A stretch of 64,000 bases of DNA from an uncultured Saccharofermentans sp. (GTDB lineage Bacteria; Bacillota; Clostridia; Saccharofermentanales; UBA5734): contig CAXXUX010000001.1 in NCBI GenBank assembly GCA_963677835.2, positions 1,536,362-1,600,361 on the forward strand, given 5' to 3'. Positions 33,967-53,752 of this stretch are shown piece after piece. The notes beneath the pieces are model-generated. The model saw only the letters and a list, made by a program, of their open reading frames with translations. It searched no databases and was not told the DNA's origin. Positions within the stretch are counted from its first letter, which is position 1. Every line of letters starts with the position of its first letter. The translations under genes were made by a program, and so were the position numbers.

Positions 33967-33999
33967 AATAATTTAATCATCATTCAAGGAGGAAAGAAA

Positions 34000-35010: not shown

Positions 35011-35026
35011 TCTAAAAACCGATTGG

Positions 35027-35063
35027 CTCCGGGCAAAGGAAAGCCTTTACCCTTTGCCCGGAG
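35027..35063 (+). other. intercistronic stem-loop after the SBP gene (13-bp stem CTCCGGGCAAAGG/CCTTTGCCCGGAG)
   Basis: A perfect inverted repeat with an 11-nt loop, followed by TTCATTC. It lies between the SBP and ATPase genes. Confidence 0.55.
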
Positions 35064-35102
35064 TTCATTCTATGATCCATTCAACGTAAGGAGGAATATA
35101 AC

Positions 35103-36608: not shown

Positions 36609-36609
36609 C

Positions 36610-37575: not shown

Positions 37576-37594
37576 TTGTTAAGGAGATTGTCAA

Positions 37595-38995
37595 ATGAGC
37601 ACGTTGATTAAAAATGGCTGTATTCTGACTGCGGAAAATGAATACCAGGCTGATATTTTTATCGAAAATGAAAAGATCAGCATGATTGCAGATTCGATCA
37701 ATCTCGCGGCAGATACCGTTATTGACGCAAAAGGCAAATATGTTTTTCCCGGCGGCATTGACCAGCACACGCATTTTGACGCGCTGTGCAATTCCGGCGA
37801 CGAAAATACTTCAGGCTACGAGGCGACCGGATCGGTCATTGCCGGCGGCACGACGACCATTGTGGATTATGCGCCGCAAGATCCTGGCTGCGGCCTGATC
37901 GATTCGATTGATCGGCGGATCAACGAGCGGGCCAAAGGCCTGATCGCGGTGGACTTCGCCTTGCATGCCCTGGTTACGGAAGTGTCAGATAAAATATTCG
38001 ATGAACTTCCGCTGCTGGCAGCGCATGGCGTTCCTTCGATCAAGCTTTTCATGGCATACAAGGGCTCGCCGCTTTATGTGGATGACGGAACCTTGTACAA
38101 AACACTTCAAATGTCGACCGAATATGGCGTTACGGTCTTCGTGCATGCTGAAAATGCCGATATCATCAATCTAATGCAAAAACAGCTCGTATCCGAAGGG
38201 AAAACCGAACCCAAATACCACGCGGATTCAAGACCCCCCTTTGTTGAAGCTGAGGCGACACAGCGGGCGATCCTTCTGGCCAGGGCCGTCAACGCGCCCA
38301 TCCATATCGTGCATGTATCCTGCAAGGAAGCCCTGGATGCGATCCGTGATGCCCGTTCCCAAAATTTGCCGGTATTTGCCGAAAGCGTCACCCATCATCT
38401 GGTTTTAACCCGCGAAGAATTGGAGCGGCCTGATTTTGAAGGCGCAAAATATGTCTGTTCGCCGCCGCTAAGAGACAACAGCCATATCGACGCCTTGTGG
38501 GAAGGCCTTCGGAACAATTGGCTGCAAACCATTTCGTCCGACCATTGCGGCATCAACTTCAAAGTCATGAAACATTTTGGCGACGACGATTTTTCACAAA
38601 TCCCCAATGGCAGTCCAGGAGCGGCCGACCGGATGCATATGATCTGGACAAACGGCGTTGCCAAAGGAAAAATCAGCAGGCAACGGTTTGTCGAAGTGAC
38701 TTCGACAAATCCGGCCAAGATCAACGGCATCTATCCCAGAAAAGGTCAGATCGGCGTCGGCGCGGATGCGGATATTGTCATTTTCGACCCGGAGTACCGG
38801 GGCGTGGTCAAATTCAGCGACAACCCCAACGGCGTCGACTATAACGTCTATGAAGGCCGGGAGCAAATCGGCCGCAGCGAAAAGGTGTTGTTAAGAGGCA
38901 AGCTTGTCGTTGACAACGGAAAATTCATTGGCGAAATGGGGCAAGGCCAGTTTATTCCAGGCAAACCGTTTGGCTCTTGCTATCAAAACCTTTAA
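37595..38995 (+). CDS. dihydropyrimidinase / D-hydantoinase (cyclic amidohydrolase)
   Basis: 466 aa. Motifs GGIDQHTHFD, IKLFMAYKG (carbamylated Lys region), VHAEN, IVHVS, FEGAKYVCSPPLR, SSDH, ADADIVIFD. Confidence 0.85.
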   Translation: MSTLIKNGCILTAENEYQADIFIENEKISMIADSINLAADTVIDAKGKYVFPGGIDQHTHFDALCNSGDENTSGYEATGSVIAGGTTTIVDYAPQDPGCGLIDSIDRRINERAKGLIAVDFALHALVTEVSDKIFDELPLLAAHGVPSIKLFMAYKGSPLYVDDGTLYKTLQMSTEYGVTVFVHAENADIINLMQKQLVSEGKTEPKYHADSRPPFVEAEATQRAILLARAVNAPIHIVHVSCKEALDAIRDARSQNLPVFAESVTHHLVLTREELERPDFEGAKYVCSPPLRDNSHIDALWEGLRNNWLQTISSDHCGINFKVMKHFGDDDFSQIPNGSPGAADRMHMIWTNGVAKGKISRQRFVEVTSTNPAKINGIYPRKGQIGVGADADIVIFDPEYRGVVKFSDNPNGVDYNVYEGREQIGRSEKVLLRGKLVVDNGKFIGEMGQGQFIPGKPFGSCYQNL

Positions 38996-39028
38996 ATTGC
39001 AGACCGGTCTTTAAGGTGGTGCGCATTG

Positions 39029-39676
39029 ATGAAAGAGACAACAATCCAGAAAATCAGAGCCGGTAAAATCGTGGCCATTTTCCGCAGGGTGGAATTGGAA
39101 CAGGTGGAAGCTGCAGCTCAGGCGTTAATATCGGGCGGCCTCTCGCTGATTGAAGTGGCGCTGGATCATAAAAGCGCCGAAGGCCGGGAAAATGCGCTGC
39201 AAGCCATCAAGCTGCTGCAAAGCACTTTCAAAGACCGCGTCTTAGTCGGAGCGGGCACCATATTGTCGGAGGAAGACGTGCAAATGGCTTGCGACGCGGG
39301 CGCCCGATACATCATATCTCCCGATACGAACGAAAAAGTCATCAAATGCTGCAACCGGCTGGGCGTCGTATCCATGCCGGGCGCGTTGACTCCCAGTGAA
39401 ATCACGAAAGCGTTCGAATATGGCGCCGATATCGTCAAACTTTTCCCGGCAGGGGAAATGGGCGTCGATTATACGAAAGCAATCATGGCGCCGCTGGGAC
39501 ATCTTCCGCTCGTGGCCGTTGGCGGAATCAACGAAACCAACATCGGTAAATTCATGCAAAGCGGCGTCATTGGCGTTGGCGTCGGCTCCAACCTGGTCAA
39601 TGGCAGCTTGATCAAGGCTGGACGTTTTGAAGAATTGGCCGCCCTTGCGCAGTCGTTTTTCAAGCAGCTCCAGTAG
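39029..39676 (+). CDS. eda: KDPG / 4-hydroxy-2-oxoglutarate aldolase family protein
   Basis: The ATG at 39029 follows AAGGTGGTG. Motifs IVAIFR, IEVAL, GAGTIL, VKLFPAG (Schiff-base Lys region). Confidence 0.75.
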   Translation: MKETTIQKIRAGKIVAIFRRVELEQVEAAAQALISGGLSLIEVALDHKSAEGRENALQAIKLLQSTFKDRVLVGAGTILSEEDVQMACDAGARYIISPDTNEKVIKCCNRLGVVSMPGALTPSEITKAFEYGADIVKLFPAGEMGVDYTKAIMAPLGHLPLVAVGGINETNIGKFMQSGVIGVGVGSNLVNGSLIKAGRFEELAALAQSFFKQLQ

Positions 39677-39712
39677 TTCGACACCCATCAAGTTAAAATT
39701 CTGGAGGAGAAA

Positions 39713-40969
39713 ATGGAAAATAAATATAATCCTTATCAGCAAATGCTATCCATCTTGGATCAGGCCGCCGAAAAACTCGGATTGGCTCAGGATGATTACA
39801 TTGTATTGAAATATCCGGAACGGGAACTGAAAGTCGCTGTTCCGGTCGAAATGGATGACGGAACCTTGAAGGTGTTTACCGGATACCGGATCCAGCATTC
39901 AAGCTCGCGCGGCCCCTGTAAAGGCGGCATCCGCTACCATCCCAGCGTCGATCCGGATGAAGTCAAGGCTTTGGCAGCCTGGATGACCTGGAAATGCGCA
40001 GTAGTCAACATCCCTTACGGCGGGGCCAAAGGCGGGATCGAAGTCGATCCGTCCACCCTGAGCACCAAAGAATTGTCGAGGCTGACCCGGCGCTACACCG
40101 CGGCAATTTTGCCGATATTAGGCCCTGAACGGGATATCCCGGCGCCGGACGTCAATACGGACGCGCGGATCATGGGCTGGATCATGGACACCTACAGCAT
40201 GTTCAAAGGGTATGCGGTGCCTGGCGTTGTCACCGGGAAGCCGATCGAGATCGGCGGGTCGCTTGGCCGCAAGGAGGCAACTGGCCGCGGCGTCACGATT
40301 GTCACGGAAGAGATTGCCTTCCGCGCAGGGTTGCCGATCCAGAAGGCCAAAATAGCGATTCAGGGATTTGGCAAGGTCGGCAGCACGGCGGCAGAATTGT
40401 TTTATGAGAAAGGCTACAACGTTGTTGCCATCAACGATGTGAATTGCGGCCTTTATAATGAAAAAGGGCTGAATATTGCCGAAGTGCTGAAGCACGTGCA
40501 GAACTGCGGGACAATCAAGGGCTATACGGAAAAAGGGATTAAAGAGATCAACAATGAAGAGCTCTTGACGATGGATGTCGACATCCTGGTTCCGGCGGCC
40601 ATGGAAAATCAGATTACGGCAGAAATCGCGAAGCAGATCAAAGCCAAAATCATTGTCGAAGGCGCCAATGGCCCGACAACGACCGAAGCCGATGCCATCC
40701 TGAACGAAAAAGGCATCATTGTCGTTCCGGACATTTTAGCCAATGCCGGCGGCGTTGTCGTATCCTATTTCGAGTGGGTGCAAAACCTCCAGGCCATTTT
40801 CTGGGACGTGCATGAAGTCAATTCCATGCTCAAGAAAATCATGCTAAAAGCCTTTGATGACGTCTACCAGCTGTCCTGCGAGAAAAACGAATCCCTGCGC
40901 ATTTCAGCTTATATGGTTGCCCTTGACCGTGTGGTCAAAGCCAAAAAGATTAGAGGGGTATTCCCTTAA
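39713..40969 (+). CDS. gdhA: Glu/Leu/Phe/Val dehydrogenase, glutamate dehydrogenase-like
   Basis: 418 aa, RBS GGAGGAG. Motifs CKGGIRYHP, PYGGAKGG, GFGKVG. Confidence 0.85.
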   Translation: MENKYNPYQQMLSILDQAAEKLGLAQDDYIVLKYPERELKVAVPVEMDDGTLKVFTGYRIQHSSSRGPCKGGIRYHPSVDPDEVKALAAWMTWKCAVVNIPYGGAKGGIEVDPSTLSTKELSRLTRRYTAAILPILGPERDIPAPDVNTDARIMGWIMDTYSMFKGYAVPGVVTGKPIEIGGSLGRKEATGRGVTIVTEEIAFRAGLPIQKAKIAIQGFGKVGSTAAELFYEKGYNVVAINDVNCGLYNEKGLNIAEVLKHVQNCGTIKGYTEKGIKEINNEELLTMDVDILVPAAMENQITAEIAKQIKAKIIVEGANGPTTTEADAILNEKGIIVVPDILANAGGVVVSYFEWVQNLQAIFWDVHEVNSMLKKIMLKAFDDVYQLSCEKNESLRISAYMVALDRVVKAKKIRGVFP

Positions 40970-41021
40970 TCGCATAGATCCTCCTAAATCCGGCTGATAT
41001 TCAGCCAATCCTCCGTACCAG

Positions 41022-41068
41022 GCGGCCTGCATGTTTAATTGGCTCATGCAGGCCGCTATTTATTTTTC
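41022..41068 (+). terminator. intrinsic terminator (12-bp stem GCGGCCTGCATG/CATGCAGGCCGC plus T-tract)
   Basis: A perfect stem with an 11-nt loop, followed by TATTTATTTTTC. It ends the hydantoin-type operon. Confidence 0.75.
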
Positions 41069-41089
41069 TATCTAAACCGGAAGCAGGGC

Positions 41090-41117
41090 TTGACAATCAC
41101 TATTCGAATGATAATAT
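41090..41117 (+). promoter_or_regulatory. predicted promoter TTGACA-16-TAATAT (TG-extended)
   Basis: Read directly. It is followed immediately by a GGTATATAT motif and a leader of about 230 nt before the first gene. Confidence 0.5.
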
Positions 41118-41354
41118 GGTATATATGAGGTTAAAACTTGTCCATGTCATATACATAAGACAAAAAGATGGCGACTAAAATTGACCTGAAATTTTCATCA
41201 CAAAACCGGACTGCAGACCAGATCTGAAAGACCATTTAGCCAGAGTCACTGTTTGATGTAGACGGAACTGTCACTTCGTCAACAACGGACTGCTGTTGTT
41301 GTGTACAAATCTGCATCTGAAATAGATCCATTGAAAGGGCAAGAAGGAGAAATT

Positions 41355-42185
41355 ATGAAGCTTTCATTTTTTACGGCAAGTCTTGCGCGTTATCCGCTGG
41401 AAAAATGTTTTCAGGTTGCAGCCGACTGCCAATTTGAAGGCGTTGAAATTTGGGGCGGCCGGCCCCACGCCTTTGCGCCGGACTTGAAAGACGGCGATAT
41501 CAATCATTTAAACCAGCTGGCCAAAGACTACAATCTGCCAATTATCGCTTTCGAGCCGGAACAGCCCGTCCATCCTTATAGCATCATGCATCGCAATGAA
41601 AAATGGCGCAAAGAAAGCATGGAATATTTCAGGATTTGCCTGGAGATGACCAAAGCCATGAACGCCAATCTGATGGTCATGGCGCCGCAGCATCCAGGTT
41701 ACGGCACGGATGGTGAAGAGAACTGGAAAATCATGATCGAAGGTTTGCATGAACTGGCAGAATTCGCTGAGAAAATCGGGACGATCCTGTGTTTGGAAAC
41801 CATAACGCAGTATGAAGGAAATCTCCTGACCCGCGCCGATGACTTGGTCCGGGCCATGCGTGAGCTTAAATCGCCCAATGTCAAGGGCATGCTGGATCTG
41901 GTTGCGCCGCTGACCATGGCTGAGCCGGCGTCTGAATACTTTGAAAAACTGGGTGCGGACATGATCCATATTCATCTTGTGGATGGCAATATCAACCATG
42001 AAGATCACTTGATCGCCGGCGACGGCGTCATCCCTTTTGTTGAAACGCTTGAAATGATCGATTCGTATGGCTACCAAGGTTATGGCAGTCTCGAAATCTT
42101 CCAGGAATACAGGATTGATCCGGTCCTGTTTACCAAAAAAGCCGTCCGGGCTGTCCGCGAATGCCAGGCCCAAATGAACAAATAA
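41355..42185 (+). CDS. xylose-isomerase-fold TIM-barrel sugar epimerase, fructoselysine 3-epimerase (FrlC)-like
   Basis: The ATG at 41355 follows AAGGAG. Motif GVEIWGGRPHAFAPDL resembles E. coli FrlC as I recall it. 276 aa. Confidence 0.65.
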   Translation: MKLSFFTASLARYPLEKCFQVAADCQFEGVEIWGGRPHAFAPDLKDGDINHLNQLAKDYNLPIIAFEPEQPVHPYSIMHRNEKWRKESMEYFRICLEMTKAMNANLMVMAPQHPGYGTDGEENWKIMIEGLHELAEFAEKIGTILCLETITQYEGNLLTRADDLVRAMRELKSPNVKGMLDLVAPLTMAEPASEYFEKLGADMIHIHLVDGNINHEDHLIAGDGVIPFVETLEMIDSYGYQGYGSLEIFQEYRIDPVLFTKKAVRAVRECQAQMNK

Positions 42186-42215
42186 TTTTAGCTTAAGGAT
42201 CATAGGAGAAGAAAT

Positions 42216-43100
42216 ATGGCATCATCTATTGACGTGAAAAAGCTCTATCAATGGTGCAGCATCCCAGCTGCCGATCTTGAAAACCATCCGGATTCGAAAA
42301 TTAAATTGAAGGTATTTGCCAGAAAAAATGATGTTTCGTCCCTGGTCGGCAACATGATGGCCGATGAGGTCATCGCAAACAACAAAATCGGCGCCTGTAC
42401 ACGATGGATTCTGCCGGCCGGCCCGATGGCCCAGTATGAAATATTCATCGATCGGGTCAATCACGAACGAATCAGCCTGGAAAATGTTTATGCGTTCCAT
42501 ATGGACGATTTTCTGGATTGGCAAGGGCGGCCTTACCCGGTTGTGAACAATTACTTCAGTCTAAAAGCCAATATGCTTGCGGATTTCTATGGCAAAATCG
42601 ACCCAAAACTTACCATTCCGGAAGAAAACCGGTTTTTCCCCGATATCAACAACATAGACTTGCTTGATAAAAAGATTGAAGAACTGGGCGGGGTCGATAC
42701 GGTTTGGGCCGGTCTTGGCTACAAGGGGCTGGTTGCGTTTTGCGAAGCGCCGAACTCGCCTTATATCGCCATTACCGAGGAAGAATATGCGAATTCCAGG
42801 ACCCGGATCGTCCATTTGAACGAGGACACCCTGATTGCCTGCAGTGAGCGGGATGTGGGCGGCCTGGTCCAAGCCATACCGCCGATGGCGATCACCATCG
42901 GCTTCAAGTCGATGCTTGCGGCGAAACGCGCCGTATTCATTGTCACCACAGGATCCTGGAAACGTACGGCGATCAGGATGTTGATGTTCAGCGAGCCGAC
43001 TCTTGAATATCCGGCCACACTGTTTCCCAAATATATTCCCGAAGTCATCGCGGTTTGCGATGAAAATACCGCGGAACCCCCGCTAAATGGCCAATTTTAA
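42216..43100 (+). CDS. glucosamine-6-phosphate deaminase/isomerase (NagB)-fold protein, divergent
   Basis: 294 aa. ILPAGP, FHMDDF (cf. NagB FNMDEY) and GLGYKGLVAFCEAP (cf. NagB GVGNDGHIAFNEP). Confidence 0.65.
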   Translation: MASSIDVKKLYQWCSIPAADLENHPDSKIKLKVFARKNDVSSLVGNMMADEVIANNKIGACTRWILPAGPMAQYEIFIDRVNHERISLENVYAFHMDDFLDWQGRPYPVVNNYFSLKANMLADFYGKIDPKLTIPEENRFFPDINNIDLLDKKIEELGGVDTVWAGLGYKGLVAFCEAPNSPYIAITEEEYANSRTRIVHLNEDTLIACSERDVGGLVQAIPPMAITIGFKSMLAAKRAVFIVTTGSWKRTAIRMLMFSEPTLEYPATLFPKYIPEVIAVCDENTAEPPLNGQF

Positions 43101-43133
43101 CATTAATTTTTGGGGGAGGAGCATGACTTAAAG

Positions 43134-44120
43134 ATGAATAACGTCCCTGATGTCATTGTTGTCAACGGGCATGGACTGGGCGAGTACTGTAATGTTAAAA
43201 GGATCCCGGTTGCCGGTGAAACCTGCAGGGCCTACAATCGGCACTTCGAGATGGATGCCGGCAAAGGGACTAATGTTGCCTGCGCGATAGGCCGCCTTGG
43301 CGAAAAGGTTGCCTTTATCGGCAAAGGCGGAGACGATGAAGGCGGCAGGCTGGGGACAGTCTGGATGGGCGAATCGCATGTCGATCTGACGCACTACCTG
43401 ATTGATCCGAATGTCGTGACCAACTTGGGATTATGCATTATTGCCGAGAACGGCGAAAATATGCTGCTGGATTTTGATGATGACAAAAACGCCATGACGC
43501 TGGAAGAAACAGATGAGCATATCCGGCAATGCATTGGCGCCAGGTTCATGACAACCGGATTTGGCGTTCCGGTCAAAACCGCCCTTTATGCCGTGACACT
43601 GGCTAAACGGCTTGGCATGTTCACCCTGATGAATGCCAGCCCGCTGCAAGATGATGTGGTTTTACCAAAGATGCCGGATTTGGATGTCCTGGTTGTCAAT
43701 GAAACGGAGGCGGCCCTGCTTTTGGGCCTTCCTAAAGATTCTGGCCAGCCGCCGCCGGAATTGGCCAAAATGCTGCGTGAAAAATATGAATGCCAAAACG
43801 TCATCATTACACTTGGCGCCCAGGGAAGTGCCGCGGCTTCCAAAGATGAGGAATGGTCGATCGAGCCGACAATCGTTGACATGGTCGATGAAACAGGCGC
43901 TGGCGACGGTTATCTGGCAGCGGTCACGGTGTGCCTTTTATGGGGAAGAAGCCTCTATGAGGCGATGCAATGGGCAAGCGTCTACTCAGCCTATCTGGTG
44001 ACATTGCCGGGATCGCTTGCCTGTTACCCGACAATCGACAAGATCGCTGGGATTTTCAAGTCTTTGGGCCAACAGGAGCTGCTTATTAATAAAAACAATT
44101 TGGAGGAACAACATGGGTAA
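43134..44120 (+). CDS. PfkB-family (ribokinase-like) carbohydrate kinase
   Basis: The ATG at 43134 lies downstream of GGGGGAGGAG. Motifs GKGTNVACAIGRLG and DETGAGDGYLAA. Confidence 0.8.
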   Translation: MNNVPDVIVVNGHGLGEYCNVKRIPVAGETCRAYNRHFEMDAGKGTNVACAIGRLGEKVAFIGKGGDDEGGRLGTVWMGESHVDLTHYLIDPNVVTNLGLCIIAENGENMLLDFDDDKNAMTLEETDEHIRQCIGARFMTTGFGVPVKTALYAVTLAKRLGMFTLMNASPLQDDVVLPKMPDLDVLVVNETEAALLLGLPKDSGQPPPELAKMLREKYECQNVIITLGAQGSAAASKDEEWSIEPTIVDMVDETGAGDGYLAAVTVCLLWGRSLYEAMQWASVYSAYLVTLPGSLACYPTIDKIAGIFKSLGQQELLINKNNLEEQHG

Positions 44121-45015
44121 ACATTTTGTCGAAGGTCTGGTTACCGAAACGATTGCGTCTTTTTTTGATGACGGTTCGGTTGATTACGACACAACGGGGG
44201 ACCTGTTCACTTTCCAGGTCGAAAAAGGAGCAAACGGCCTGTTTGTCAATGGTTTGGGCGATGAAGCTTTTTCGCTCAGCCTTGAGGAAAGGGCGAACAT
44301 TGTCAAGGTCGCCGTTGGCCGCTGCCAGAACACCCCGGTAAAAGTCATTGCCGGCGTGATGGTCAACTGGTCCGGCGAAGGGCTAAAACTGATCGAAATG
44401 TATGAAAAGACCGGCTGTGATGCCATCTGCATAGCGGCTCCGCCTTTTTTTGAATGTACCGAGGACGCGCTTTTCGAATATTTTTCAACTTTGATCGGAT
44501 CGACGAGATTGCCGGTTTACCTTTATAACTGCCGCGAAATGGGAACCCTGGTTTCGCCCAGGCTGCTTGGCAAGCTGGCCCGCACTTTTCACAATCTGCG
44601 CGGCTATAAGGATGCGACACGCAATACGGTTCATCTGCTTCAATGCATGATGGAGGTCGCCAATGATGATTTTGACTTTTTATGCGGCTGTGACGGCAGC
44701 TTTTTCATGCACATGATGGTCGGCGGCTGCGGGACGGTTTCCTTTCTCGCGGTTCCTTTCCCGACCGAGGTAAAAGACATTTATACATACTACAAGCAGG
44801 GCGAAATTGAAAAATCCAAGGCAGCCCAGGAAAAAGTGCTCAAATTGCGCTCGGCGCTTCAAAACTCGCCAAACAGCGCGGCATATATGTATGCCCAAAA
44901 ATATACCGGAGGACCATTTGCCCGCAACACGCGCCTGCCCATGGCCATGATCGCGATGGAAGAGGAAGAAATGGCAAAATTGGACCGGATTGCCAAAGAA
45001 CTGGAAATTGGCTGA
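44113..45015 (+). CDS. DapA/NanA-family (class I, Schiff-base) aldolase
   Basis: The ATG at 44113 follows GGAGG and overlaps the kinase stop by 8 nt. Motifs GLFVNGLGDEAFSLS, YLYN, and GYKDAT (catalytic Lys region). Confidence 0.75.
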   Translation: MGKHFVEGLVTETIASFFDDGSVDYDTTGDLFTFQVEKGANGLFVNGLGDEAFSLSLEERANIVKVAVGRCQNTPVKVIAGVMVNWSGEGLKLIEMYEKTGCDAICIAAPPFFECTEDALFEYFSTLIGSTRLPVYLYNCREMGTLVSPRLLGKLARTFHNLRGYKDATRNTVHLLQCMMEVANDDFDFLCGCDGSFFMHMMVGGCGTVSFLAVPFPTEVKDIYTYYKQGEIEKSKAAQEKVLKLRSALQNSPNSAAYMYAQKYTGGPFARNTRLPMAMIAMEEEEMAKLDRIAKELEIG

Positions 45016-45058
45016 ATTTGTCCTCAAGAACATGAAAAAACGCGGGGAGGCGCCTGAA

Positions 45059-45999
45059 ATGCCGGATATTCCAGATATTGTCGTTGTCAACGGGCATGGC
45101 CTTGGCGAATATTGCACTGTCAAGCGAATTCCATTGAAAGGTGAAACGGCGCTTCCTTATAACCGCCATTTTGAGATGGATGCCGGCAAGGGGACCAATG
45201 CCGCAATCGTCATCGCCAGGCTGGGCGGCAAGGTTGCTTTTGTCGGCAAGGCTGGTATGGATGAAGGCGGGAAGCTCGGCGAAAATGGATGGGCGAATCA
45301 GGGGTTGATTTAACGCACTACATTTTGGATCCAAACGTCGAAACGAATCTTGGCTTGGTCATCATTGCCGAAAACGGCGAGAATATGATTCTGAATTTTG
45401 ACGACGACAAAAACGCGATTGCCAAGGACGAGCTGGAAAAGCATCTGAGGCAATGCGCGGGGGCAAAGTATCTGGTCACCGGATTTGAAATCCCGGTTGA
45501 AACATCATTATTCGCGGCCCGGCTGGCCAAAGAAATGGGCCTGTTTGTCCTGATGAATCCAAGTCCGATCGATGAAGCTGTTGAGCTGCCGGAAATGCCG
45601 TTTGTGGATTTGCTTTGTGTTAACGAGACGGAAGCCTGCATTTTGTTAAAACTAAAGCTGCAGGAGGAGCAGGATTGGCAAAAGATGGCGCAAGCGCTCC
45701 GGGAACATTTCAAATGCCCAAACGCCGTCATCACGCTTGGCAAGAAGGGCAGCGCAGCGGCATCTTCTGCGGGGACCTGGGCCGTCGCTCCGACACCGGT
45801 TGTGATGGTGGACGAAAGCGGCGCCGGCGACGGATACCTCGCAGCTTTAACGCTAAATCTCAGTTGGGGGAAACCCTTGCGTGAAGCGATGGAATGGGCC
45901 AGCAAATACTGCGCTTATCTGGTCACACAAAAAGGCTCGATTGCCATCTATCCATACCTGGATCAAATGGAGGGCATCTTTGCCAGACTCAAGAATTAA
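45059..45999 (+). pseudogene. second PfkB-family kinase, paralog of 43134-44120, interrupted by a 1-nt frameshift near 45281-45288
   Basis: ORF 44990-45313 encodes the N-terminal 85 or so residues (PDIVVVNGHGLGEYC...GKGTN...GGKLGE). ORF 45289-45999, in another frame, continues (W)MGESGVDLTHY... colinear with the paralog (GGRLGTVWMGESHVDLTHY). The junction is GGCGAAAATGG. Confidence 0.7.
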
Positions 46000-46019
46000 A
46001 AAACAGGAGGTAGTATCAA

Positions 46020-46832
46020 ATGCAATGGTGTAAAGAATTATTCGGGGTCGAAAAGCCGATTATCGCGCTGCTTCACATGCGGGCGCTGCCTGGAGATCCT
46101 CAATATAAACGGAATGATACGATGAAACAGGTCATCGAGTTCGCCCGGCAGGATTTGCACAACCTGCAGGATGGCGGCGTGGATGGCGTATTATTCTCAA
46201 ATGAGTACAGCATGCCTTACCAGAAGCATGTGCCTTTCCTGATTCCTTCGGCGATGGCGCGCGTCATTGGCGAACTGATGAGTGAAATCCGCGTGCCTTT
46301 CGGCGTTGATTGTGAAGCGGACGCCATGGCTACACTTGATCTTGCCGCTGCAACCGACGCTTCATTTATCCGGGGCACCTTTACGGGCGGATATGTTGGC
46401 GATATCGGCATCATCAACACGGATATTGCCCGGCTTTTGCGCCGGAAGCATGATTTGGGGCTGGATAATCTCCGGATGCTCTACTTTCTGAACTCGGAAT
46501 CCGACGAATACCTGGCCCATCGCGAACTGCCGGCAATTGCCAGATCGATCATCTTCACCTGCAAGCCGGATGCGCTTTGCATATCCGGCGCCAATGCCGG
46601 CCTTGAAGCCAATTCGTCCTGGATTGCCGATGTTCGCGCCGTTACGAACGGCGTACCTGTTTTTTGCAACACCGGCTGCAGTGCGGAAAACATCCGGCAA
46701 AAGCTTGCCATTTCCGATGGCGCGTGTGTCGGCACCGCCTTTAAAGTCGGCGGCAAATTTGACAACCTGGTCGATGGCGAACGGGTCAGGCAATTTATGG
46801 AGCAGGTCATGGTGTACCGCAAGGCACATTAA
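46020..46832 (+). CDS. BtpA/SgcQ-family TIM-barrel protein (function unknown)
   Basis: 270 aa, RBS AGGAGG. N-terminus KPIIALLHMRALPGDP is typical of the family. Confidence 0.7.
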   Translation: MQWCKELFGVEKPIIALLHMRALPGDPQYKRNDTMKQVIEFARQDLHNLQDGGVDGVLFSNEYSMPYQKHVPFLIPSAMARVIGELMSEIRVPFGVDCEADAMATLDLAAATDASFIRGTFTGGYVGDIGIINTDIARLLRRKHDLGLDNLRMLYFLNSESDEYLAHRELPAIARSIIFTCKPDALCISGANAGLEANSSWIADVRAVTNGVPVFCNTGCSAENIRQKLAISDGACVGTAFKVGGKFDNLVDGERVRQFMEQVMVYRKAH

Positions 46833-46875
46833 TCAACATCAGCTAAAAATATATTGTGGTGTAGAGGGAATAAAA

Positions 46876-48399
46876 ATGTCGATGGAATATTTTTGCGGCA
46901 TAGACGTTGGCACCTACGAAACCAAAGGCGTCATTATTGACGGGCAATGCCGGATTATTGCGGAAAACACGGTCAAACACGGTCTGGATAACCCCAAGCC
47001 GAATTATTTTGAGCATGATGCCGAACAGGTCTGGTGGCATGATATTTGTGAAGTTTCGCGCGGCCTGCTGCTGAAAGCGGGGATCAAAAATACCGAAATT
47101 AAAGCGGTCGGCGTGAGCGCCATCAATGCTTGCGTCGTTCCCGTCGACGAAAACGGCGTGCCGCTGCGCAAGGCCATTTTGTACGGCATCGACGCGCGAG
47201 CCGAAGCCGAGATGGCATTCATTGAGCAGTACTACGGCGAAGAGCGCCGCAACCAGCTGTTTAACGGCCGGCCGATTTGTTCGTCGGACTGCATGCCTAA
47301 AATCATGTGGATAAAAAATAACGAGCCGGAGATTTTCCGCAAGACTTCAAAATTTCTGACGTCATCTTCCTACATAACCGCAAAACTGACTGGCGAATAT
47401 GTAATCGACCGCTTCCTGGCGCTTTCTTCCTTCGCGCCCTGCTACAATCCTGATTTGTCCGTCAACAAAGAATTGTGCGAGGAGTTGTACTGCCAATCCG
47501 GGCAGCTGGCTTCTGGCAGGGAATCAACGGATGTTGTCGGATACGTCACGGCAAAAGCTGCCGGGGAAACGGGGCTTTCTGAAGGCACGCCGGTTATCAC
47601 GGGAACGGATGATTCGGCGGCGGAGGCAATCAGCACCGGCGTTACACGCCCGGGCGACCTGATGATCCAACTGGGATCAACGTGCTACATCATCTACTGT
47701 TCCGATAAAATGGTCGTTGATGAGCGGCTTTGGGCAGAAGATTATATTATTCCAGGCACGATCAGCATCGATGGGGGGACAAATGCAGCCGGCGCTTTGA
47801 CAAAATGGCTGAGGGACACGATTTTTACGGATTTTGCAGCAGAACAGGAAAGGACCGGGCAAGATGCCTACGGCAGGATGGCGGCCTGCGCCAGGGAAAT
47901 TCCTGCAGGCTCGGATGGCTTAATCACACTGCCCTATTTTGCCGGCGAACGAACGCCGATCAATGATCTGAACGCCAAAGGCGTCATCTTTGGCCTGCAG
48001 CTGCATCACACCCGCGAACACATCTACCGGTCGGCGCTGGAGGGCATTGCCTACTCGATTGCCCAGCATGTCGACATCATCGAAGAGCACGGGCTAAAAA
48101 TCAATAAACTGATGGCTGTCGGCGGCGGCACGAAAAATCCTTTATGGCTGCAGATTATTGCCGATGTGACCGGACATGCCGTCAATACGGCAAAAGTGAC
48201 CATCGGGGCGTCATACGGCGACGCCATGATGGCGGCAATCGGCGTTGGCCATTTTAAAAGCTATTATGATCTTTCGGAATATATCTCCCCCGATAAAGTC
48301 CTGCGGCCAAACCCGGAAAACCATGCGGTTTATCAATCTTACCAAAAGATTTTTGGACAAATATACCTTGCAACAAAGGAGCTGATGCATATGCTTTAA
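46876..48399 (+). CDS. FGGY-family carbohydrate kinase (xylulokinase-like)
   Basis: The ORF track extends to 46537 in a frame overlapping the BtpA gene. The ATG at 46876 follows GAGGG. Motifs CGIDVGTYETKG and AVGGGTKNPLW. Confidence 0.85.
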   Translation: MSMEYFCGIDVGTYETKGVIIDGQCRIIAENTVKHGLDNPKPNYFEHDAEQVWWHDICEVSRGLLLKAGIKNTEIKAVGVSAINACVVPVDENGVPLRKAILYGIDARAEAEMAFIEQYYGEERRNQLFNGRPICSSDCMPKIMWIKNNEPEIFRKTSKFLTSSSYITAKLTGEYVIDRFLALSSFAPCYNPDLSVNKELCEELYCQSGQLASGRESTDVVGYVTAKAAGETGLSEGTPVITGTDDSAAEAISTGVTRPGDLMIQLGSTCYIIYCSDKMVVDERLWAEDYIIPGTISIDGGTNAAGALTKWLRDTIFTDFAAEQERTGQDAYGRMAACAREIPAGSDGLITLPYFAGERTPINDLNAKGVIFGLQLHHTREHIYRSALEGIAYSIAQHVDIIEEHGLKINKLMAVGGGTKNPLWLQIIADVTGHAVNTAKVTIGASYGDAMMAAIGVGHFKSYYDLSEYISPDKVLRPNPENHAVYQSYQKIFGQIYLATKELMHML

Positions 48400-48406
48400 G
48401 TTAATG

Positions 48407-48434
48407 TTGACATTTGACAAGTGGTATATATAAT
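48407..48434 (+). promoter_or_regulatory. predicted consensus promoter TTGACA-16-TATAAT
   Basis: Read directly. It is overlapped by AAGTGGTATATA (48419-48430), and a second AAGTGGTA lies at 48449-48456. Confidence 0.55.
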
Positions 48435-48496
48435 AGAAACATAGGGGTAAGTGGTAAACAATAGAGCTAAAAGGAGTATGTTTTACTGAAGGGAGG

Positions 48497-49228
48497 TTGA
48501 CTGTCATCAGCAAATACGCGAACCTTGTCAATTCAGATCTGACGGAAAAAATCGAAGAATACATCATCGGCAACAATCTTGGCAGCGGTGACAGGCTGCC
48601 ATCTGAGCGTGATTTTTCCCAGATTCTCGACGTCAGCAGAATGACATTAAGAGATTCCATCAAGAAACTGTGCAATACCGGGGTCCTGGAAAATATTCAC
48701 GGCAAGGGGACCTTTGTGGCACAAAAGCGTGTTTGCATTGATGTTTTGAACTTCTACTCCCCCCGAAAACAATCTGGCGAGGACTGCGATGCAGTAAAGT
48801 ATAAACTGATTGGCATAGAAAAAGTTAAAGCGGAAGGGTCTATTGCAAGACATCTTAATGTTGCCGTTGGAATCGATCTCTATCAGATCAAGCGGCTTCG
48901 GAGCGTTTCAAAGCAAAGATTTGCAATTGAAACGACCTATATCCCAATGAGTTTATGCCCCGGCATTGAAAAATTCGACCTTGAATCCAATCACCTTTAC
49001 AAGACCTACAACAATCATTATCACATGAAGCTCACCCATTCAAATATCGACATTAGCATTGGACAGGCAACTTTCGAAGAAGCCGAATGGTTGGGAATTT
49101 CTGAAGGCGGTTATATTTCTGTTGAAAAAAGGACGTCATTCGATAAGCGTGACGTTCCTTGCGAGCATGTCCTGACCGTCTCAAGCGTCAACAATGTCTA
49201 TTATTTTGCCGATCTTGTCGCTAAGTAA
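48497..49228 (+). CDS. GntR-family (HutC/UTRA) transcriptional regulator
   Basis: 243 aa with a TTG start. Motif LPSERDFSQILDVSRMTLRDSIKKL. Confidence 0.8.
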   Translation: MTVISKYANLVNSDLTEKIEEYIIGNNLGSGDRLPSERDFSQILDVSRMTLRDSIKKLCNTGVLENIHGKGTFVAQKRVCIDVLNFYSPRKQSGEDCDAVKYKLIGIEKVKAEGSIARHLNVAVGIDLYQIKRLRSVSKQRFAIETTYIPMSLCPGIEKFDLESNHLYKTYNNHYHMKLTHSNIDISIGQATFEEAEWLGISEGGYISVEKRTSFDKRDVPCEHVLTVSSVNNVYYFADLVAK

Positions 49229-49404
49229 ATTTTGCCTTTCTTTTTAACCTCTCTCGATAAGACAAAAGTATTGTAAAACAAAGAAAATAAGTATTTAAGC
49301 ATCAGCAAGCCACTCAACGGTGTATTTTGTGCTGCTCGAATTTTCTTTTTTAATGAAACTGCCTGTCGCATGAAAATACTGATTATTTGTCGGAGGGAAT
49401 TATT

Positions 49405-50928
49405 ATGGCTGAAAGGGTAACGTTTGAAGAACAAACCGTTTCTGAACAAACAAAAACCACGGTAAAATCCAAACAAAAAATACGTACGGCTATCGGATAC
49501 ATTTTTGTTGCCTTATGCTTTGTTGTTACCGCCTTTTTTGCGCCGGCGGTCGGCTCGGAATATTATGGATTCTGGAGCGCACTCCCGCCAATTTCGATTT
49601 TTGCCTTCATCCTTTTAACCAAGCATATTCTGGAAGGGTTCTTGTGGTCCGGCTTGCTTGCCGTTTTTATCGAATACCACGAAACATTATTCACACAATA
49701 TATCGATGAAACATTTACCTCGGTCTGCGATCCGGATAACTTTTACGTTGTGCTTCTCTTCTTGTTGATCGGCGTCGTTGTCGTTATCTTGAAAAAGAGC
49801 GGCGCAAGCACTTACTTTGCCCGCTGGATATCCAGCAAGGCGAAAAGCAGCAAGACGGTTTTATTCATTACCTATCTGGTAGGAATTGCCCTCTGCGTTG
49901 ACGACTATACTTCTGCTTTGGCAGGAGGCGCGGCGCTATCGCCGGTCAATGACGAATACCACATCCCGCGTGAAATGACAGCTTACGCCCTGAGGGCCTC
50001 GGTCACAACGCCGGCCTGCCTGGCGCCGATCGGCTCATGGGTCATCTGGACCGCGGCGCTGCTCGAGCAAAATGGCGTTGCGACAGAAGGACAAGGCGTA
50101 ATGGTCTATATGACAAAGCTCCTGCCTTATCTGTTCTTCCCGTTTATTGTCTATATTGTCGGCCTATTGGTCATTTTTGGCGTGATCCCCAAGTTCGGCA
50201 AGATGAAGCGCGCTTATGAACGTGTTGCTGCCGGCGGGCCGCCGGCGCCCGTTGTCGAAAAAACGGCTTATGAAGAAGAAGAAATCGAGAAAGTATCTGA
50301 ACCTCGCAAAGGCGTCAATTTGATTCACTTTTTCCTGCCGATCGCCGCGCTGTTCCTGTTTGGCTACCTGTTTGACTGGAACATGGTTTATGGATTGATT
50401 GCCGCCATCTTTACAACCTTCATCTTCTATATCGTCACCAAAGTTTTTTCCGTTTATGACGCGACCAATAGTGTCTTTGAAGGTTTTTCCTATATGACGC
50501 AGCTGGCGATCATGATGGTTTTCGGCCTGACCCTCTGCCGTGTATGCGGCGAGCTGGGCTTCACCGAATATGTGGTCGGATTGACTCAGAATTTCGTTAC
50601 TCCGCAAATGCTTCCATTCATTATCTTCGTTGTCTTCTGCGCAACAGAATTCCTGGTAACCTTCAACTGGACCTTGTACCTGATTGCGATGCCGATCGTG
50701 GTCGCCCTGGCTTCAAGCACCGGCTCCAATATCTTCCTTTGCCTTGGCGCTCTTGTGTCTTCCGGCGTTTTCGGATACTGCCTGGCTTTTTCCTCGGATG
50801 GCGGCATGTGTGCCTGCGGCGCCTGTGGAATCGACATTTACGAACAGAATACGACACAAATGCCATACATGCTGATTTCGATGGGCTTGTCGGCAATCGC
50901 TTACCTGGCCTGCGGATTCATCCTGTAA
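49405..50928 (+). CDS. NhaC-family transporter
   Basis: The ATG at 49405 follows GGAGGG. About 507 aa, polytopic. Clearly alignable with the paralog at 59014-60474. Confidence 0.75.
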   Translation: MAERVTFEEQTVSEQTKTTVKSKQKIRTAIGYIFVALCFVVTAFFAPAVGSEYYGFWSALPPISIFAFILLTKHILEGFLWSGLLAVFIEYHETLFTQYIDETFTSVCDPDNFYVVLLFLLIGVVVVILKKSGASTYFARWISSKAKSSKTVLFITYLVGIALCVDDYTSALAGGAALSPVNDEYHIPREMTAYALRASVTTPACLAPIGSWVIWTAALLEQNGVATEGQGVMVYMTKLLPYLFFPFIVYIVGLLVIFGVIPKFGKMKRAYERVAAGGPPAPVVEKTAYEEEEIEKVSEPRKGVNLIHFFLPIAALFLFGYLFDWNMVYGLIAAIFTTFIFYIVTKVFSVYDATNSVFEGFSYMTQLAIMMVFGLTLCRVCGELGFTEYVVGLTQNFVTPQMLPFIIFVVFCATEFLVTFNWTLYLIAMPIVVALASSTGSNIFLCLGALVSSGVFGYCLAFSSDGGMCACGACGIDIYEQNTTQMPYMLISMGLSAIAYLACGFIL

Positions 50929-51015
50929 AAATATTGAAAGATTGTTTTGCGGCAAAGGGGTAATGGCGGGCGACCTGGCAAAATAAAATCAGTCGACAAT
51001 TAAAGGAGAATGACT

Positions 51016-51852
51016 ATGTCAAAAATCACGATGTCACAGGTTGCAACCAGCAACTTCACCTATCGTCGCTACACTTTTGACTACTTTTTAAAATCAGCCC
51101 AAAAGCTCGGTGTGGAAAACATCGAGCTGAGTGGCTGCCATCCGCACTTTTCGGTTTATGAAGCTTTGCAGTTTGACGTGAAAAGTCTGGCGAAGCAAAT
51201 CAAAGAACACCATCTGACCGTTTCCGCGATTGAACCAGAACAAAACTTCCTCCCGATCAATATCGCTGCACGTGATCAATACTTTCGCGAACAGAGTGTG
51301 AAGCAGCTCGGCTTCTACATTGAAAACGCCCATGAGTTCAACTGCAGCAAGGTCATTATCTATCCAGGCAAAACGTTAATCAATCATCCCCGTTCGGAGG
51401 CCTGGAAATATTCGCGGGACTCGATTCATCAGCTCAGCAAGCTTGCGAAAAAAAATGACGTAACGATTCTTCTGGAAAGTGTATCGGGATTTGTTTCGGA
51501 CTTGATGACGGACTCCAAAACCGTCAAACGGATGATCGATGAAATCGGCGCCGACAATATCGGCTGCTGCGTCAATTCCTCCGCGGCCTTTGCCGCGGGG
51601 GAAACGCTCGAAGACTATTTCAGGCTCTTCGGCAGTAAAATCGGCATGGTTCAGCTCTCCGACAGTACGGCCGACAATGAACAGCTGGTCTGGGGCGACG
51701 GCGAACAAAATCTTGATGTGCATATCAATACCCTGCGCGAATATGGCTATGCCGGGGCTGTGGCCCTGGAACTGTTTATGGAAGAATTGGCTGATGGCGC
51801 CGAAGAAAACTATGCGGCCTGCATTGAATACTTCAAGAAACATATTGATTAG
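51016..51852 (+). CDS. xylose-isomerase-fold TIM-barrel protein (sugar phosphate isomerase/epimerase family)
   Basis: The ATG at 51016 lies 8 nt after AAAGGAG. About 278 aa. Family call by overall pattern (IELSGCHPHF ... ILLESV ... ALELF). Confidence 0.7.
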   Translation: MSKITMSQVATSNFTYRRYTFDYFLKSAQKLGVENIELSGCHPHFSVYEALQFDVKSLAKQIKEHHLTVSAIEPEQNFLPINIAARDQYFREQSVKQLGFYIENAHEFNCSKVIIYPGKTLINHPRSEAWKYSRDSIHQLSKLAKKNDVTILLESVSGFVSDLMTDSKTVKRMIDEIGADNIGCCVNSSAAFAAGETLEDYFRLFGSKIGMVQLSDSTADNEQLVWGDGEQNLDVHINTLREYGYAGAVALELFMEELADGAEENYAACIEYFKKHID

Positions 51853-51862
51853 GAGAACTGAT

Positions 51863-52723
51863 ATGAAACAACTCGATTTTTCCCAATTCGGCATTATGTC
51901 GGTGCAATATCAGCAATACAGCCTTGACTACTGTCTGGACTCCATCGCCTCAAACGGATTTACGTTCATTGACTTTTGGGGAGGCGCTTCGCACTACTGC
52001 GCGTTTGATACGCCTCCCGAAAAACGCTTGCAGCGCGTTTCGAAAATCCGGCGAATGCTGGATGACCGGGGCTTGAAAATGTCGGTCTTTACCGCTGAGC
52101 AAATCTGCCTGTATCCGATCAATGTGGCGTCATCAAATGATTACGTTCGCAAAAACAGCATAGAAATAGTCAAACGCTACCTGGAAGACACCAAGGAGTT
52201 TGGCGCAGATTACTATTTCATGCAGATGGGTTACGGCCTGTTTGACGAAGATATCGATGCCGCCAGGGCCCGTTCGATTGACGCCCTGAAAGAGATGACC
52301 GAATATGCTGAAAAAATAGGCGTCAAAATGGTGATGGAGCAATTGCAATACTATGAATCCAACCTCTGCCACAATCGGAAAACGTTGAAAGACCTGATTG
52401 ACGCGGTCGATTCCCCGTACCTGACGGCCTGCGTCGACTGTGTTGCAGCGGCTGCTGCCGGCGAATCGGTTGAAAGCTATTATGACGTATTCAATGGCGC
52501 GATCAACCATGCCCATCTTGCGGATGGCTGTCCAACCGGCCACCTGGTGCCGGGCGATGGTGAAAACCCGCTCGAAGACTATCTCAGGACTTTTGCCGAA
52601 CATGACTATAAAGGTTCGATTACCCTTGAAATCAACAACCAGATGTATTTCAACGATCCTGACCAGGCGGTTGCCCGGGCGGCGGACTGGCTGAAAAAAT
52701 GCCCGGTCATTGCCGGATCTTAA
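51863..52723 (+). CDS. xylose-isomerase-fold TIM-barrel protein (sugar phosphate isomerase/epimerase family)
   Basis: The ORF track extends to 51539 in the wrong context. The ATG at 51863 follows AGGAG. 286 aa (IDFWGGASHYCAF ... VMEQL ... TLEIN). Confidence 0.7.
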   Translation: MKQLDFSQFGIMSVQYQQYSLDYCLDSIASNGFTFIDFWGGASHYCAFDTPPEKRLQRVSKIRRMLDDRGLKMSVFTAEQICLYPINVASSNDYVRKNSIEIVKRYLEDTKEFGADYYFMQMGYGLFDEDIDAARARSIDALKEMTEYAEKIGVKMVMEQLQYYESNLCHNRKTLKDLIDAVDSPYLTACVDCVAAAAAGESVESYYDVFNGAINHAHLADGCPTGHLVPGDGENPLEDYLRTFAEHDYKGSITLEINNQMYFNDPDQAVARAADWLKKCPVIAGS

Positions 52724-53704: not shown

Positions 53705-53752
53705 ATGGATAATTATATAATTTTACGCCCAGTGAAATGAAAGGGATTGCCG

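Follow-up and report, generated by a model that had tools for sequence, protein, structure and literature searches.

A frl-like gene cluster in an uncultured Saccharofermentans in which a NagB-fold protein may take the place of the SIS-fold deglycase

Amadori and Heyns compounds are plentiful in heated food and feed gut microbes. In the papers that we found, the known bacterial routes depend on the SIS-fold deglycases FrlB, FraB and GfrE/F, and the known deglycases are relatives of GlmS that share this fold (PMC10285752). Escherichia coli FrlA and FrlC are annotated for fructoselysine and psicoselysine, which are ketosamines. The frlBONMD system of Bacillus subtilis handles alpha-glycated amino acids according to PMC12632257. 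Work cited in PMC10285752 (Miller 2015 and Wiame 2005) presents the Gfr system of Salmonella and Enterococcus as acting on fructoselysine and glucoselysine. A paper on Intestinimonas mentions only a kinase and an SIS deglycase. Glucosamine-6-phosphate (GlcN6P) deaminase chemistry is common to the SIS and NagB folds, as stated in PMC10201695. Here, we analyze a cluster of seven consecutive co-directional genes, g1 to g7, on the plus strand at 41355-48399 of a 64,000-nucleotide stretch from an uncultured Saccharofermentans sp. (contig CAXXUX010000001.1; hereafter the window).

In order, the genes encode an FrlC-like epimerase, a NagB-fold protein, a ribokinase-like PfkB kinase, a DHDPS-like protein, a second PfkB kinase, a BtpA/SgcQ-family barrel and an FGGY kinase (Table 1). 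Their context points to fructosamine (frl-type) catabolism. We put the chances at about even that the operon lies in a frl-like locus in which a ribokinase-like kinase and a NagB-fold enzyme stand in for FrlD and FrlB. The substrate would most likely be glycated lysine or another glycated amino acid, derived from cooked food or decaying matter. The logic of FrlD and FrlB would then be carried out by different folds, for which the convergence of SIS and NagB GlcN6P deaminases may serve as a precedent. The gene set is undescribed in the literature searched, which also assigns no function to BtpA/SgcQ; papers on fructoselysine, on Heyns and Amadori clusters and on GlcN6P deaminase held nothing tying these families to a pathway. 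This agrees with the original prediction, whose author knew of no characterized pathway with this set.

A scan of one genome per GTDB species, scored by tblastn with reference proteins, gave 78 related loci (designated by L-numbers). The counts given here rest on the 75 loci that have a NagB-like gene at 45% identity or more. A ribokinase-like PfkB gene lies near the NagB-like gene in 73 of the 75 and directly adjacent to it in 64. The DHDPS-like gene is present in 28, and these extended loci also include an FrlC-like epimerase (24 loci), two or more kinases (21), an NhaC-type transporter (14), an amino-acid permease (13), BtpA (12) and the g7-type FGGY kinase at 52-66% identity (10). Next to or near the DHDPS-like gene, 21 of the 28 have a gene for a mutarotase-like DUF4432 protein of about 365 aa (for instance L047 2039-3133, L034 5195-6283, L059 12853-13956 and L011 15440-16537); no DUF4432 gene was found in the 64-kb window. 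All seven families occur within 10 kb in five other loci, which belong to two Oscillospiraceae/Eubacteriales metagenome-assembled genomes (MAGs), Faecalicatena, Mediterraneibacter and a Sphaerochaetaceae. Conservation of the gene set, a check proposed in the original prediction, is borne out by the kinase coupling and by these five loci. Among all 75 loci, 26 have an FrlC-like gene and 22 at least two kinase genes. The extended set recurs in Clostridia, Spirochaetes and Anaerolineae, and BtpA with the same FGGY kinase recurs in Firmicutes, Anaerolineae, Spirochaetes and Fusobacteria. The association exceeds chance, and its recurrence across phyla indicates that it is real and old, but modular.

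Three modules can be distinguished. The first is the core pair of NagB-like gene and kinase. The second comprises the DHDPS-like, DUF4432, epimerase and kinase genes, and forms a separate divergent operon in Enterocloster and [Clostridium] asparagiforme. The third is the separable pair of BtpA and FGGY kinase, which Fusobacterium ulcerans carries without a NagB-like gene (FGGY 52% identical to g7, BtpA 56% to g6); its neighbors there are FrlB-like SIS and FrlD-like PfkB genes together with those for a GltS-type symporter and a regulator of the GntR/UTRA type. In a Lachnospiraceae lineage whose NagB-like protein forms one 90%-identity cluster found on 446 contigs, the order is NagB-like, PfkB, DHDPS, PfkB, AP_endonuc_2, NhaC, GntR. 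The closest relative in the GTDB scan (77% identity) has the order SIS, FrlD-like PfkB, two AP_endonuc_2 genes, NagB-like, PfkB, DHDPS, PfkB, NhaC; its AP_endonuc_2 genes resemble those that we call Ea and Eb in the window. Overall the NagB-like subfamily is small: a set of 1.84 billion representatives contains 39 of its clusters (50% identity, E<=1e-30).

Two variants of the core pair were also seen. Tandem duplicate NagB-like genes followed by one kinase gene occur in L051-L053, L055 and L058 (Oscillospiraceae MAGs) and in L085 and L086. In L074 an SIS gene directly follows the kinase gene, and the two form one 667-codon open reading frame (ORF) in a simple ORF call; weaker matches occur in L075, L077 and L084.

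Evidence for the frl-type context comes from the epimerase, the transporters and the gene order. The g1 protein matches PF01261 (136 bits), scores 275.7 bits against the NCBIfam fructoselysine 3-epimerase model (equivalog cut-off 305) and aligns end to end with E. coli FrlC at 40% identity (268 aa, ungapped). Although it falls slightly short of the cut-off, it probably has this activity. Anaerolineae loci have FrlC orthologues at 60-65%. All 13 amino-acid permeases in the related loci are FrlA orthologues (45-53% identity to E. coli FrlA), and in 10 of these 13 the surrounding 10 kb are free of SIS-like genes. In three Enterocloster-group genomes (L045, L047 and L089; Enterocloster and [Clostridium] asparagiforme) the order frlA-like, NagB-like, kinase mirrors frlA-frlB-...-frlD, so that the NagB-like gene occupies the place of E. 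coli frlB. In the close relatives L013 and L017, FrlB/FrlD-like genes and the module share one gene string. Where the window has NhaC, related loci use an FrlA orthologue, an ATP-binding cassette (ABC) system or a tripartite ATP-independent periplasmic (TRAP) system. Minimal loci of NagB-like gene and kinase are accompanied by an FrlONM-like CUT1 ABC system and by genes for M20/M24 peptidases, for an alanine racemase and for an aminotransferase, and some neighborhoods of NagB-like loci have a saccharopine-dehydrogenase-like gene. The peptidases, racemase, aminotransferase and dehydrogenase are the company expected for amino-acid- or peptide-linked sugars. The FrlC identity, the FrlA orthologues, the gene order and L013/L017 together support the general idea from which this analysis started, a glycation-product route with C-N cleavage by the NagB-like enzyme.

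The g2 protein scores 72.5 bits against TIGR00502 (NagB; cut-off 236.9), and a Pfam search at E<=0.001 that included Glucosamine_iso gave no match. A profile search against the PDB recovered GlcN6P deaminases only (1e-19). The best Foldseek matches of an AlphaFold2 model (predicted local distance difference test, pLDDT, 86) are NagB structures (E about 1e-19, template-modeling (TM) scores 0.70-0.79), ahead of 6-phosphogluconolactonases. Identity to NagB is 25-29%; in comparison, g2 is 33 aa longer at the N-terminus, carries an additional insert of about 10 aa and lacks the allosteric C-terminus. In NagB, Asp72 is the enolizing base, and His143, Asp141 and Glu148 open the ring. D97 and E177 of g2, invariant in the NagB-like family, align with E. 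coli NagB D72 and E148, the motif around the Asp72 equivalent being FHMDDF, and R212 and K249 align with the phosphate-binding R172 and K208. The residue pattern indicates that the enolization machinery and phosphate site have been kept and the ring-opening device lost. This fits an enzyme suited to a sugar phosphate supplied by the adjacent kinase, with a chemistry that would be related to that of NagB and, given the loss of the His143/Asp141 ring-opening pair, not identical to it.

The kinase g3 matches PF00294 (137 bits) and has ribokinases as its best PDB matches. Its similarity to E. coli FrlD is limited to 73 C-terminal aa, and it scores 45 bits against NF007321 (FrlD; cut-off 247); it belongs to the same superfamily and is not an FrlD orthologue. 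The same applies to g5, which after repair is a ribokinase-like paralogue of g3 (62% identity). All family assignments of the original prediction hold; its seven-gene description needs correction at g5, which is split by a 1-nt deletion. The N-terminal 93 codons lie in one frame that ends at a TAA stop (45311-45313), the remainder continues in the -1 frame from 45286/45289 as a 236-codon ORF, and tblastn of g3 on the window gives two high-scoring segment pairs at g5. The break falls at a run of four A (gaaaatgg) that is 1 nt short relative to all orthologues, which are continuous across the junction; one added A restores ...GGKLGEKWMGES..., the same as in the Youxingia wuxianensis sequence. 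The break is either a real mutation (a fresh pseudogene) or a homopolymer assembly error. Programmed frameshifting was set aside as less likely: there is no classical slippery heptamer at this site, and loss of 1 nt from the A-run is the simpler account. The three kinases had been taken to imply several phosphorylated intermediates or alternative substrates. Given the paralogy of g3 and g5 and the frameshift, consecutive steps fit less well than alternative, e.g., epimeric, substrates.

We propose the following scheme, in which roles are read from sequence, fold and neighborhood, while gene content, conservation, residue patterns and fold are observed. A glycated amino acid would enter via the NhaC-type transporter conserved next to the module, under GntR/UTRA control. 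Based on its identity to FrlC, g1 may interconvert ketosamines of the fructose and psicose types, which are C3 epimers, as an optional step. The ribokinase-like fold of g3 and its adjacency to g2 suggest that it adds a phosphate to the sugar moiety at the terminal primary hydroxyl; g5, if functional, would perform the same reaction, probably on an epimeric or otherwise related substrate. The g2 protein could then bind the sugar phosphate via its Arg172/Lys208 equivalents, and the Asp72 equivalent would enolize beside the C-N bond, with imine hydrolysis yielding a hexose (or pentose) phosphate and setting the amino acid free. The proteins g4, g6 and g7 would be conserved accessory enzymes. As a working guess, g6 and g7 may serve a second ketosamine class, e.g., a pentose-derived one, and g4 may, as a further guess, act on the keto group of the sugar or product via a Schiff base.

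Several observations weigh against this scheme. His143 of NagB is replaced by an invariant Leu172 in the g2 family, and Asp141 by Lys in g2 and Lys/Arg across the family, so that catalysis may differ from that of NagB or be of another kind. SIS and NagB-like genes share a gene string in L057, L074/L075 and L017, which means that simple replacement of FrlB is not the whole story; we rejected it as a full explanation, and the two cleaving enzymes probably take different substrates. The transporter in the window is of the NhaC type and not FrlA. The need for g4, g6 and g7, or for DUF4432 in relatives, is left unexplained. Finally, the aldose-1-epimerase-like genes beside the DHDPS-like gene in 21 of 28 loci hint at an aldose intermediate, which would not be expected from ketosamines alone.

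The missing His143/Asp141 pair would also suit a rare-sugar route without amine release, in which the NagB-like protein would serve solely to isomerize aldose and ketose phosphates, or as a lactonase. Its partners in the use of psicose, allose, tagatose or pentulose-type sugars would be ketose 3-epimerases, kinases and an aldolase. Epimerase-like genes of the AP_endonuc_2 family abound in the cluster, as do RPE, class II aldolase and second FGGY kinase genes in relatives. We nevertheless regard this route as very improbable: the motif is NagB-like (MDD/EF), the fold is nearer to deaminases than to lactonases, and an amino-acid moiety is indicated by the neighboring genes, which encode FrlA orthologues, M20/M24 peptidases, a saccharopine dehydrogenase, an alanine racemase and an aminotransferase.

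The hint of an aldose bears on the choice between Amadori and Heyns substrates. In a Heyns route, N-substituted 2-amino-2-deoxy-aldoses (glucoselysine or mannoselysine) would be phosphorylated at C6 and "deaminated" by the NagB-like enzyme to fructose-6-phosphate and lysine. This would be the smallest chemical step from NagB, with the same carbon skeleton and the Asp72 base kept. An aldose anomeric centre needs mutarotation, and besides DUF4432 in 21 of the 28 extended loci there is a PF01263 gene near one minimal locus. Two or three paralogous kinases would suit gluco/manno C2 epimers, and a division of labor with the SIS-type (Amadori) loci that coexist in the same window and operons is plausible. 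However, FrlC-type 3-epimerases in 24 of the 28 extended loci and FrlA orthologues in 13 carry ketosamine annotations in E. coli, and a 3-epimerase has no obvious substrate in a 2-amino-aldose, which weakens the Heyns reading. Gfr, the only characterized Heyns system cited in PMC10285752, has a mannose-type phosphotransferase system (PTS) and SIS deglycases. No sequence feature separates the two substrate classes. The Heyns route of the original prediction is weakened accordingly, and we consider a Heyns substrate unlikely.

The DHDPS-like protein g4 (PF00701, 141.6 bits) raises a different possibility, that of an amino-sugar or sialic-acid-like salvage route. In DHDPS, Thr44 and Thr45 of the GTTGE motif, with Tyr107 and Tyr133, make up the catalytic triad and carboxylate cradle. 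The Schiff-base lysine (Lys161 of E. coli DapA) is kept in g4 (GYKDA), and 28 orthologues share the pattern G[YF]K[DN]A without exception. GTTGE is changed to GLGDE (G[LF]G[DGA]E across the clade), and PYY to PPFF (PP[FL][FY] across the clade); Tyr133 is kept in g4 and is Phe in many orthologues. Loss of the carboxylate-binding Thr-Thr and of Tyr107 makes a standard pyruvate-lyase mechanism doubtful. In the salvage route, g4 would release pyruvate and a hexosamine from a compound like sialic acid, or peptidases would free a hexosamine from a conjugate, followed by 6-phosphorylation by the kinase, epimerization by BtpA or an AP_endonuc_2 protein, and ammonia release by the NagB-like enzyme. A NagB fold, a kinase, a NAL-family fold and a barrel are all present, minimal loci have M20/M24 peptidases and amidohydrolases, and the DHDPS-like and DUF4432 neighbors in relatives are expected if the lyase product is an aldose. 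Against this, the operon has no NanK (ROK), NanE or NagA homologue, g4 scores 51-56 bits against NanA models with cut-offs of 281 and 382, the pyruvate-holding residues are lost family-wide, and the FrlA/FrlC orthology and FrlR-like regulators point elsewhere. The NanA/NanK/NanE/NagB-like alternative of the original prediction therefore finds little support, and we think such salvage quite improbable.

The barrel protein g6 had been suggested, as an alternative to the FrlC-like barrel, as the epimerase of that route. It belongs to the BtpA/SgcQ family (PF03437, 225.5 bits, cut-off 30; TIGR00259, 229.2 bits, cut-off 153.4) and is 45% identical to E. coli SgcQ; a sequence search for a solved homologue found none. 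Foldseek of its AlphaFold2 model (pLDDT 88) returns only generic phosphate-binding barrels of remote similarity, at TM 0.5-0.6 (GGGPS, ThiE, PRAI, KDPG/KDPGal aldolase, HPS and RPE). The protein is thus no closer to NanE than to a dozen other such barrels, which removes the special case for a NanE-like epimerase; the model favors a phospho-ligand and supports no specific reaction. The FGGY kinase g7 has both FGGY_N and FGGY_C, scores 304.3 bits against TIGR01312 (XylB; cut-off 380.25) and has as best PDB match the FGGY kinase 3ifr, followed by E. coli XylB. Its orthologues at 52-66% identity adjoin NagB-like or BtpA genes in other phyla. A second BtpA-associated module stands beside NagB-like clusters in L011/L018 (1161-8172), L021, L034, L036, L043, L048 and L090; its FGGY kinase is a different one (identity to g7 about 25%), and it also includes an RPE-family epimerase, an AP_endonuc_2 gene, a class II aldolase and sometimes an HAD phosphatase, a set reminiscent of SgcE paired with SgcQ in the E. 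coli sgc operon.

Returning to the frl-like scheme, a broader version of it is tentative and, in our view, rather doubtful: the NagB-fold family could be the first non-SIS ketosamine-6-phosphate deglycase and could form a multi-branch Maillard route with g4, then a Schiff-base enzyme that no longer performs pyruvate chemistry, and with BtpA and the xylulokinase-like FGGY kinase. Anaerobes would in that case use hexose- and pentose-derived ketosamines, possibly also Heyns products, and the BtpA/SgcQ family, including E. coli SgcQ, would gain its first biochemical function.

The operon is not functionally ended at 48399, where the original prediction had closed it: the same strand carries four more genes, for a regulator, a transporter and the AP_endonuc_2 proteins Ea and Eb, each with counterparts in related loci (Table 1). 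The regulator matches PF00392 and PF07702; at 25% identity to E. coli FrlR the likeness is at family level only. In most extended loci the module is flanked by one to three GntR/UTRA genes. The NhaC-family transporter (PF03553) is likely the uptake system of the module. Its orthologues (44-54% identity) lie immediately 3' of the module in 14 loci, and a paralogue (47%) belongs to an SIS/PfkB locus of the window. The claim that no transporter is encoded is thus right for 41355-48399, but a conserved one lies just downstream. In L013/L017, a gene placed between the FrlB/FrlD-like genes and the NagB-like one is 60% identical to Ea, and the counterpart of Eb is 74% identical to it; in the window a gap of 10 nt separates Ea and Eb (both PF01261).

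Table 1. Positions of the operon, its signals and other features of the window.
Feature	Position	Strand	Description
g1	41355-42185	+	FrlC-like ketosamine 3-epimerase; xylose-isomerase-like TIM barrel; AP_endonuc_2
g2	42216-43100	+	NagB-fold protein; proposed deglycase/deaminase for phosphorylated amino sugar
g3	43134-44120	+	Ribokinase-like PfkB kinase
g4	44113-45015	+	DHDPS/NAL-fold protein; Schiff-base lysine kept, most of catalytic motif lost
g5	45032-45999	+	Second ribokinase-like PfkB kinase; -1 frameshift at A-run 45282-45285
g6	46020-46832	+	BtpA/SgcQ-family TIM barrel
g7	46876-48399	+	FGGY kinase, xylulokinase-like, under XylB cut-off
Terminator-like hairpin	41040-41055		Precedes promoter-like site of g1
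Promoter-like site	41090-41117	+	TTGACA-16-TAATAT, TG-extended; about 240 nt 5' of g1; consensus scan
Perfect sigma-70 consensus	48407-48434	+	TTGACA-16-TATAAT; between g7 and GntR/UTRA gene; consensus scan
GntR/UTRA regulator	48497-49228	+	HutC-type, FrlR-like
NhaC-family transporter	49387-50928	+	
Ea	51010-51852	+	AP_endonuc_2 protein
Eb	51863-52723	+	AP_endonuc_2 protein
PHP-domain gene	52720-53511	-	Histidinol-phosphatase-like
GntR/UTRA gene	53747-54466	+	Convergent pair with next, between the two glycated-amine loci
GntR/UTRA gene	54483-55196	-	Convergent pair with previous
Second glycated-amine-type locus	55704-63258	-	
Amidohydro_2	55704-56600	-	In second locus
FrlD-like PfkB	56593-57396	-	In second locus; 41% to E. 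coli FrlD
Amidohydro_3	57356-58981	-	In second locus
NhaC paralogue	59014-60522	-	In second locus
PfkB	60488-61354	-	In second locus; FrlD-like; paired with SIS
SIS	61359-62372	-	In second locus; FrlB-like
GntR/UTRA	62536-63258	-	In second locus
MFS transporter	1896-3275		Beside frlBONMD-like locus
frlBONMD-like locus	3329-9389	-	B. subtilis type, with divergent GntR/UTRA
Two permeases	3329-5161	-	In frlBONMD-like locus
SBP_bac_1	5205-6587	-	In frlBONMD-like locus
PfkB	6563-7444	-	In frlBONMD-like locus; FrlD-like; paired with SIS
SIS	7466-8464	-	In frlBONMD-like locus
GntR/UTRA	8625-9389		Divergent
Four-gene set	9416-14403	-	Adjoins frlBONMD-like locus
DAO-family oxidoreductase	9416-10768	-	Flavin adenine dinucleotide (FAD) type
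2Fe-2S protein	10557-11330	-	Sarcosine-oxidase-A3-domain protein
Pyr_redox_2 protein	11333-12430	-	
Aldehyde dehydrogenase	12775-14403	-	
Hydantoin-utilization-like string	29752-40969	+	FCD-type regulator, aminotransferase, M20 amidohydrolase, Asp/Glu/hydantoin racemase, ABC system (Peripla_BP_4, double ABC ATPase, BPD_transp_2), hydantoinase-like amidohydrolase, KDPG/KHG aldolase, glutamate dehydrogenase

The seven genes are tightly spaced. The predicted 8-nt overlap of g3 and g4 (44113-44120) is real, the gaps are 30 (g1-g2), 33 (g2-g3), 16 (g4-g5), 20 (g5-g6) and 43 nt (g6-g7), and most starts are preceded by Shine-Dalgarno-like sequences, with the ribosome-binding site GAAGGAG at g1. The preceding glutamate dehydrogenase gene ends at 40969, and the 385-nt gap that follows fits an operon start at g1. 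The promoter-like sites in Table 1 are pattern matches only, and as such not evidence of function. An Rfam scan of 40900-53000 (E<=1) gave one chance-level match and found no lysine riboswitch or T-box. The exact 10-mer TGGTATATAT occurs at 41117-41126 and 48422-48431, overlapping the -10 of both promoter-like sites. It could be a candidate operator for a local regulator; the reading as a shared operator was set aside because of the overlap with the -10 consensus and because 15 related loci do not have the 10-mer.

Other parts of the window also carry genes of glycated-amine type. No SIS domain was found in the proteins scanned across 41355-52723, in agreement with the original prediction for the operon, but the window has two SIS and PfkB pairs elsewhere, three FrlD-like genes (the PfkB genes of these pairs included) and five GntR/UTRA regulators in all. 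One pair belongs to a locus like frlBONMD of B. subtilis, and the other to a second glycated-amine-type locus whose Amidohydro_2 protein is 52% identical to that of a gene inside Anaerolineae NagB-like clusters. The four-gene set adjoining the frlBONMD-like locus looks like an opine/sarcosine-oxidase-type secondary-amine oxidase, and may be another cleavage route for N-substituted amino acids. The hydantoin-utilization-like string that ends 385 nt 5' of g1 is an odd mix of a sugar-type ABC system with its binding protein and hydantoinase genes.

If a second fold does perform deglycation, gut-metagenome marker surveys of "fructoselysine-degrading capacity" would miss its carriers. The cluster also provides a testable context for three orphan groups, namely the NagB subfamily, the DHDPS-like clade with a remodeled active site, and BtpA/SgcQ. 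Cultivable carriers include [Clostridium] asparagiforme DSM 15981, Enterocloster lavalensis, Youxingia wuxianensis, Helcococcus sueciensis, Neobacillus bataviensis, Longilinea arvoryzae and Fusobacterium ulcerans.

Compared with E. coli frlABCDR, the locus has in common an FrlC-like protein, a PfkB-superfamily kinase and a GntR/UTRA regulator, and in relatives the gene just 5' of the NagB-like one encodes an FrlA orthologue (45-53%). It differs in having a NagB-fold protein in place of the SIS-fold FrlB, ribokinase-like kinases, an NhaC-type transporter and extra DHDPS-like, BtpA and FGGY genes. The minimal loci of Anaerolineae resemble B. subtilis frlBONMD in their CUT1 ABC binding protein, two permeases, kinase and C-N-cleaving enzyme, but the last is of another fold; a true frlB/frlD/ABC locus lies in the window itself (3329-8464). 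Like Gfr, which processes the Heyns product glucoselysine among its substrates via a 6-phosphate and a deglycase, the operon would be a route for glycated lysine, but the mannose-family PTS and SIS-fold deglycases of Gfr are both missing from it.

The g2 protein shares with type I NagB its fold (TM 0.70-0.79) and the equivalents of Asp72, Glu148, Arg172 and Lys208, whereas its family differs in being accompanied by a ribokinase-like kinase (in 73 of 75 loci) and in having Leu for His143 and Lys/Arg for Asp141. The NanA-NanK-NanE-NagA-NagB route likewise unites a protein of NAL/DHDPS fold with a sugar kinase and a protein of NagB fold, but g4 is without the residues that hold and activate pyruvate, and ROK, NanE and Amidohydro_1 gave no match among the proteins scanned across 41355-52723. 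The similarity of g6 to SgcQ (45%) recalls the E. coli sgc operon (sgcR-E-A-Q-C-B-X), and in relatives an RPE-like epimerase accompanies BtpA, in parallel to the association of SgcE with SgcQ; unlike our locus, sgc has PTS components and the M42 peptidase-like SgcX, and is without an FGGY kinase or NagB-like gene. The locus falls outside the frl, nag and nan families in the strict sense, because several features that define them were looked for and not found. We suggest that it would best be described as a frl-like locus with a different cleaving enzyme and kinase, joined by three accessory enzymes (g4, g6 and g7).

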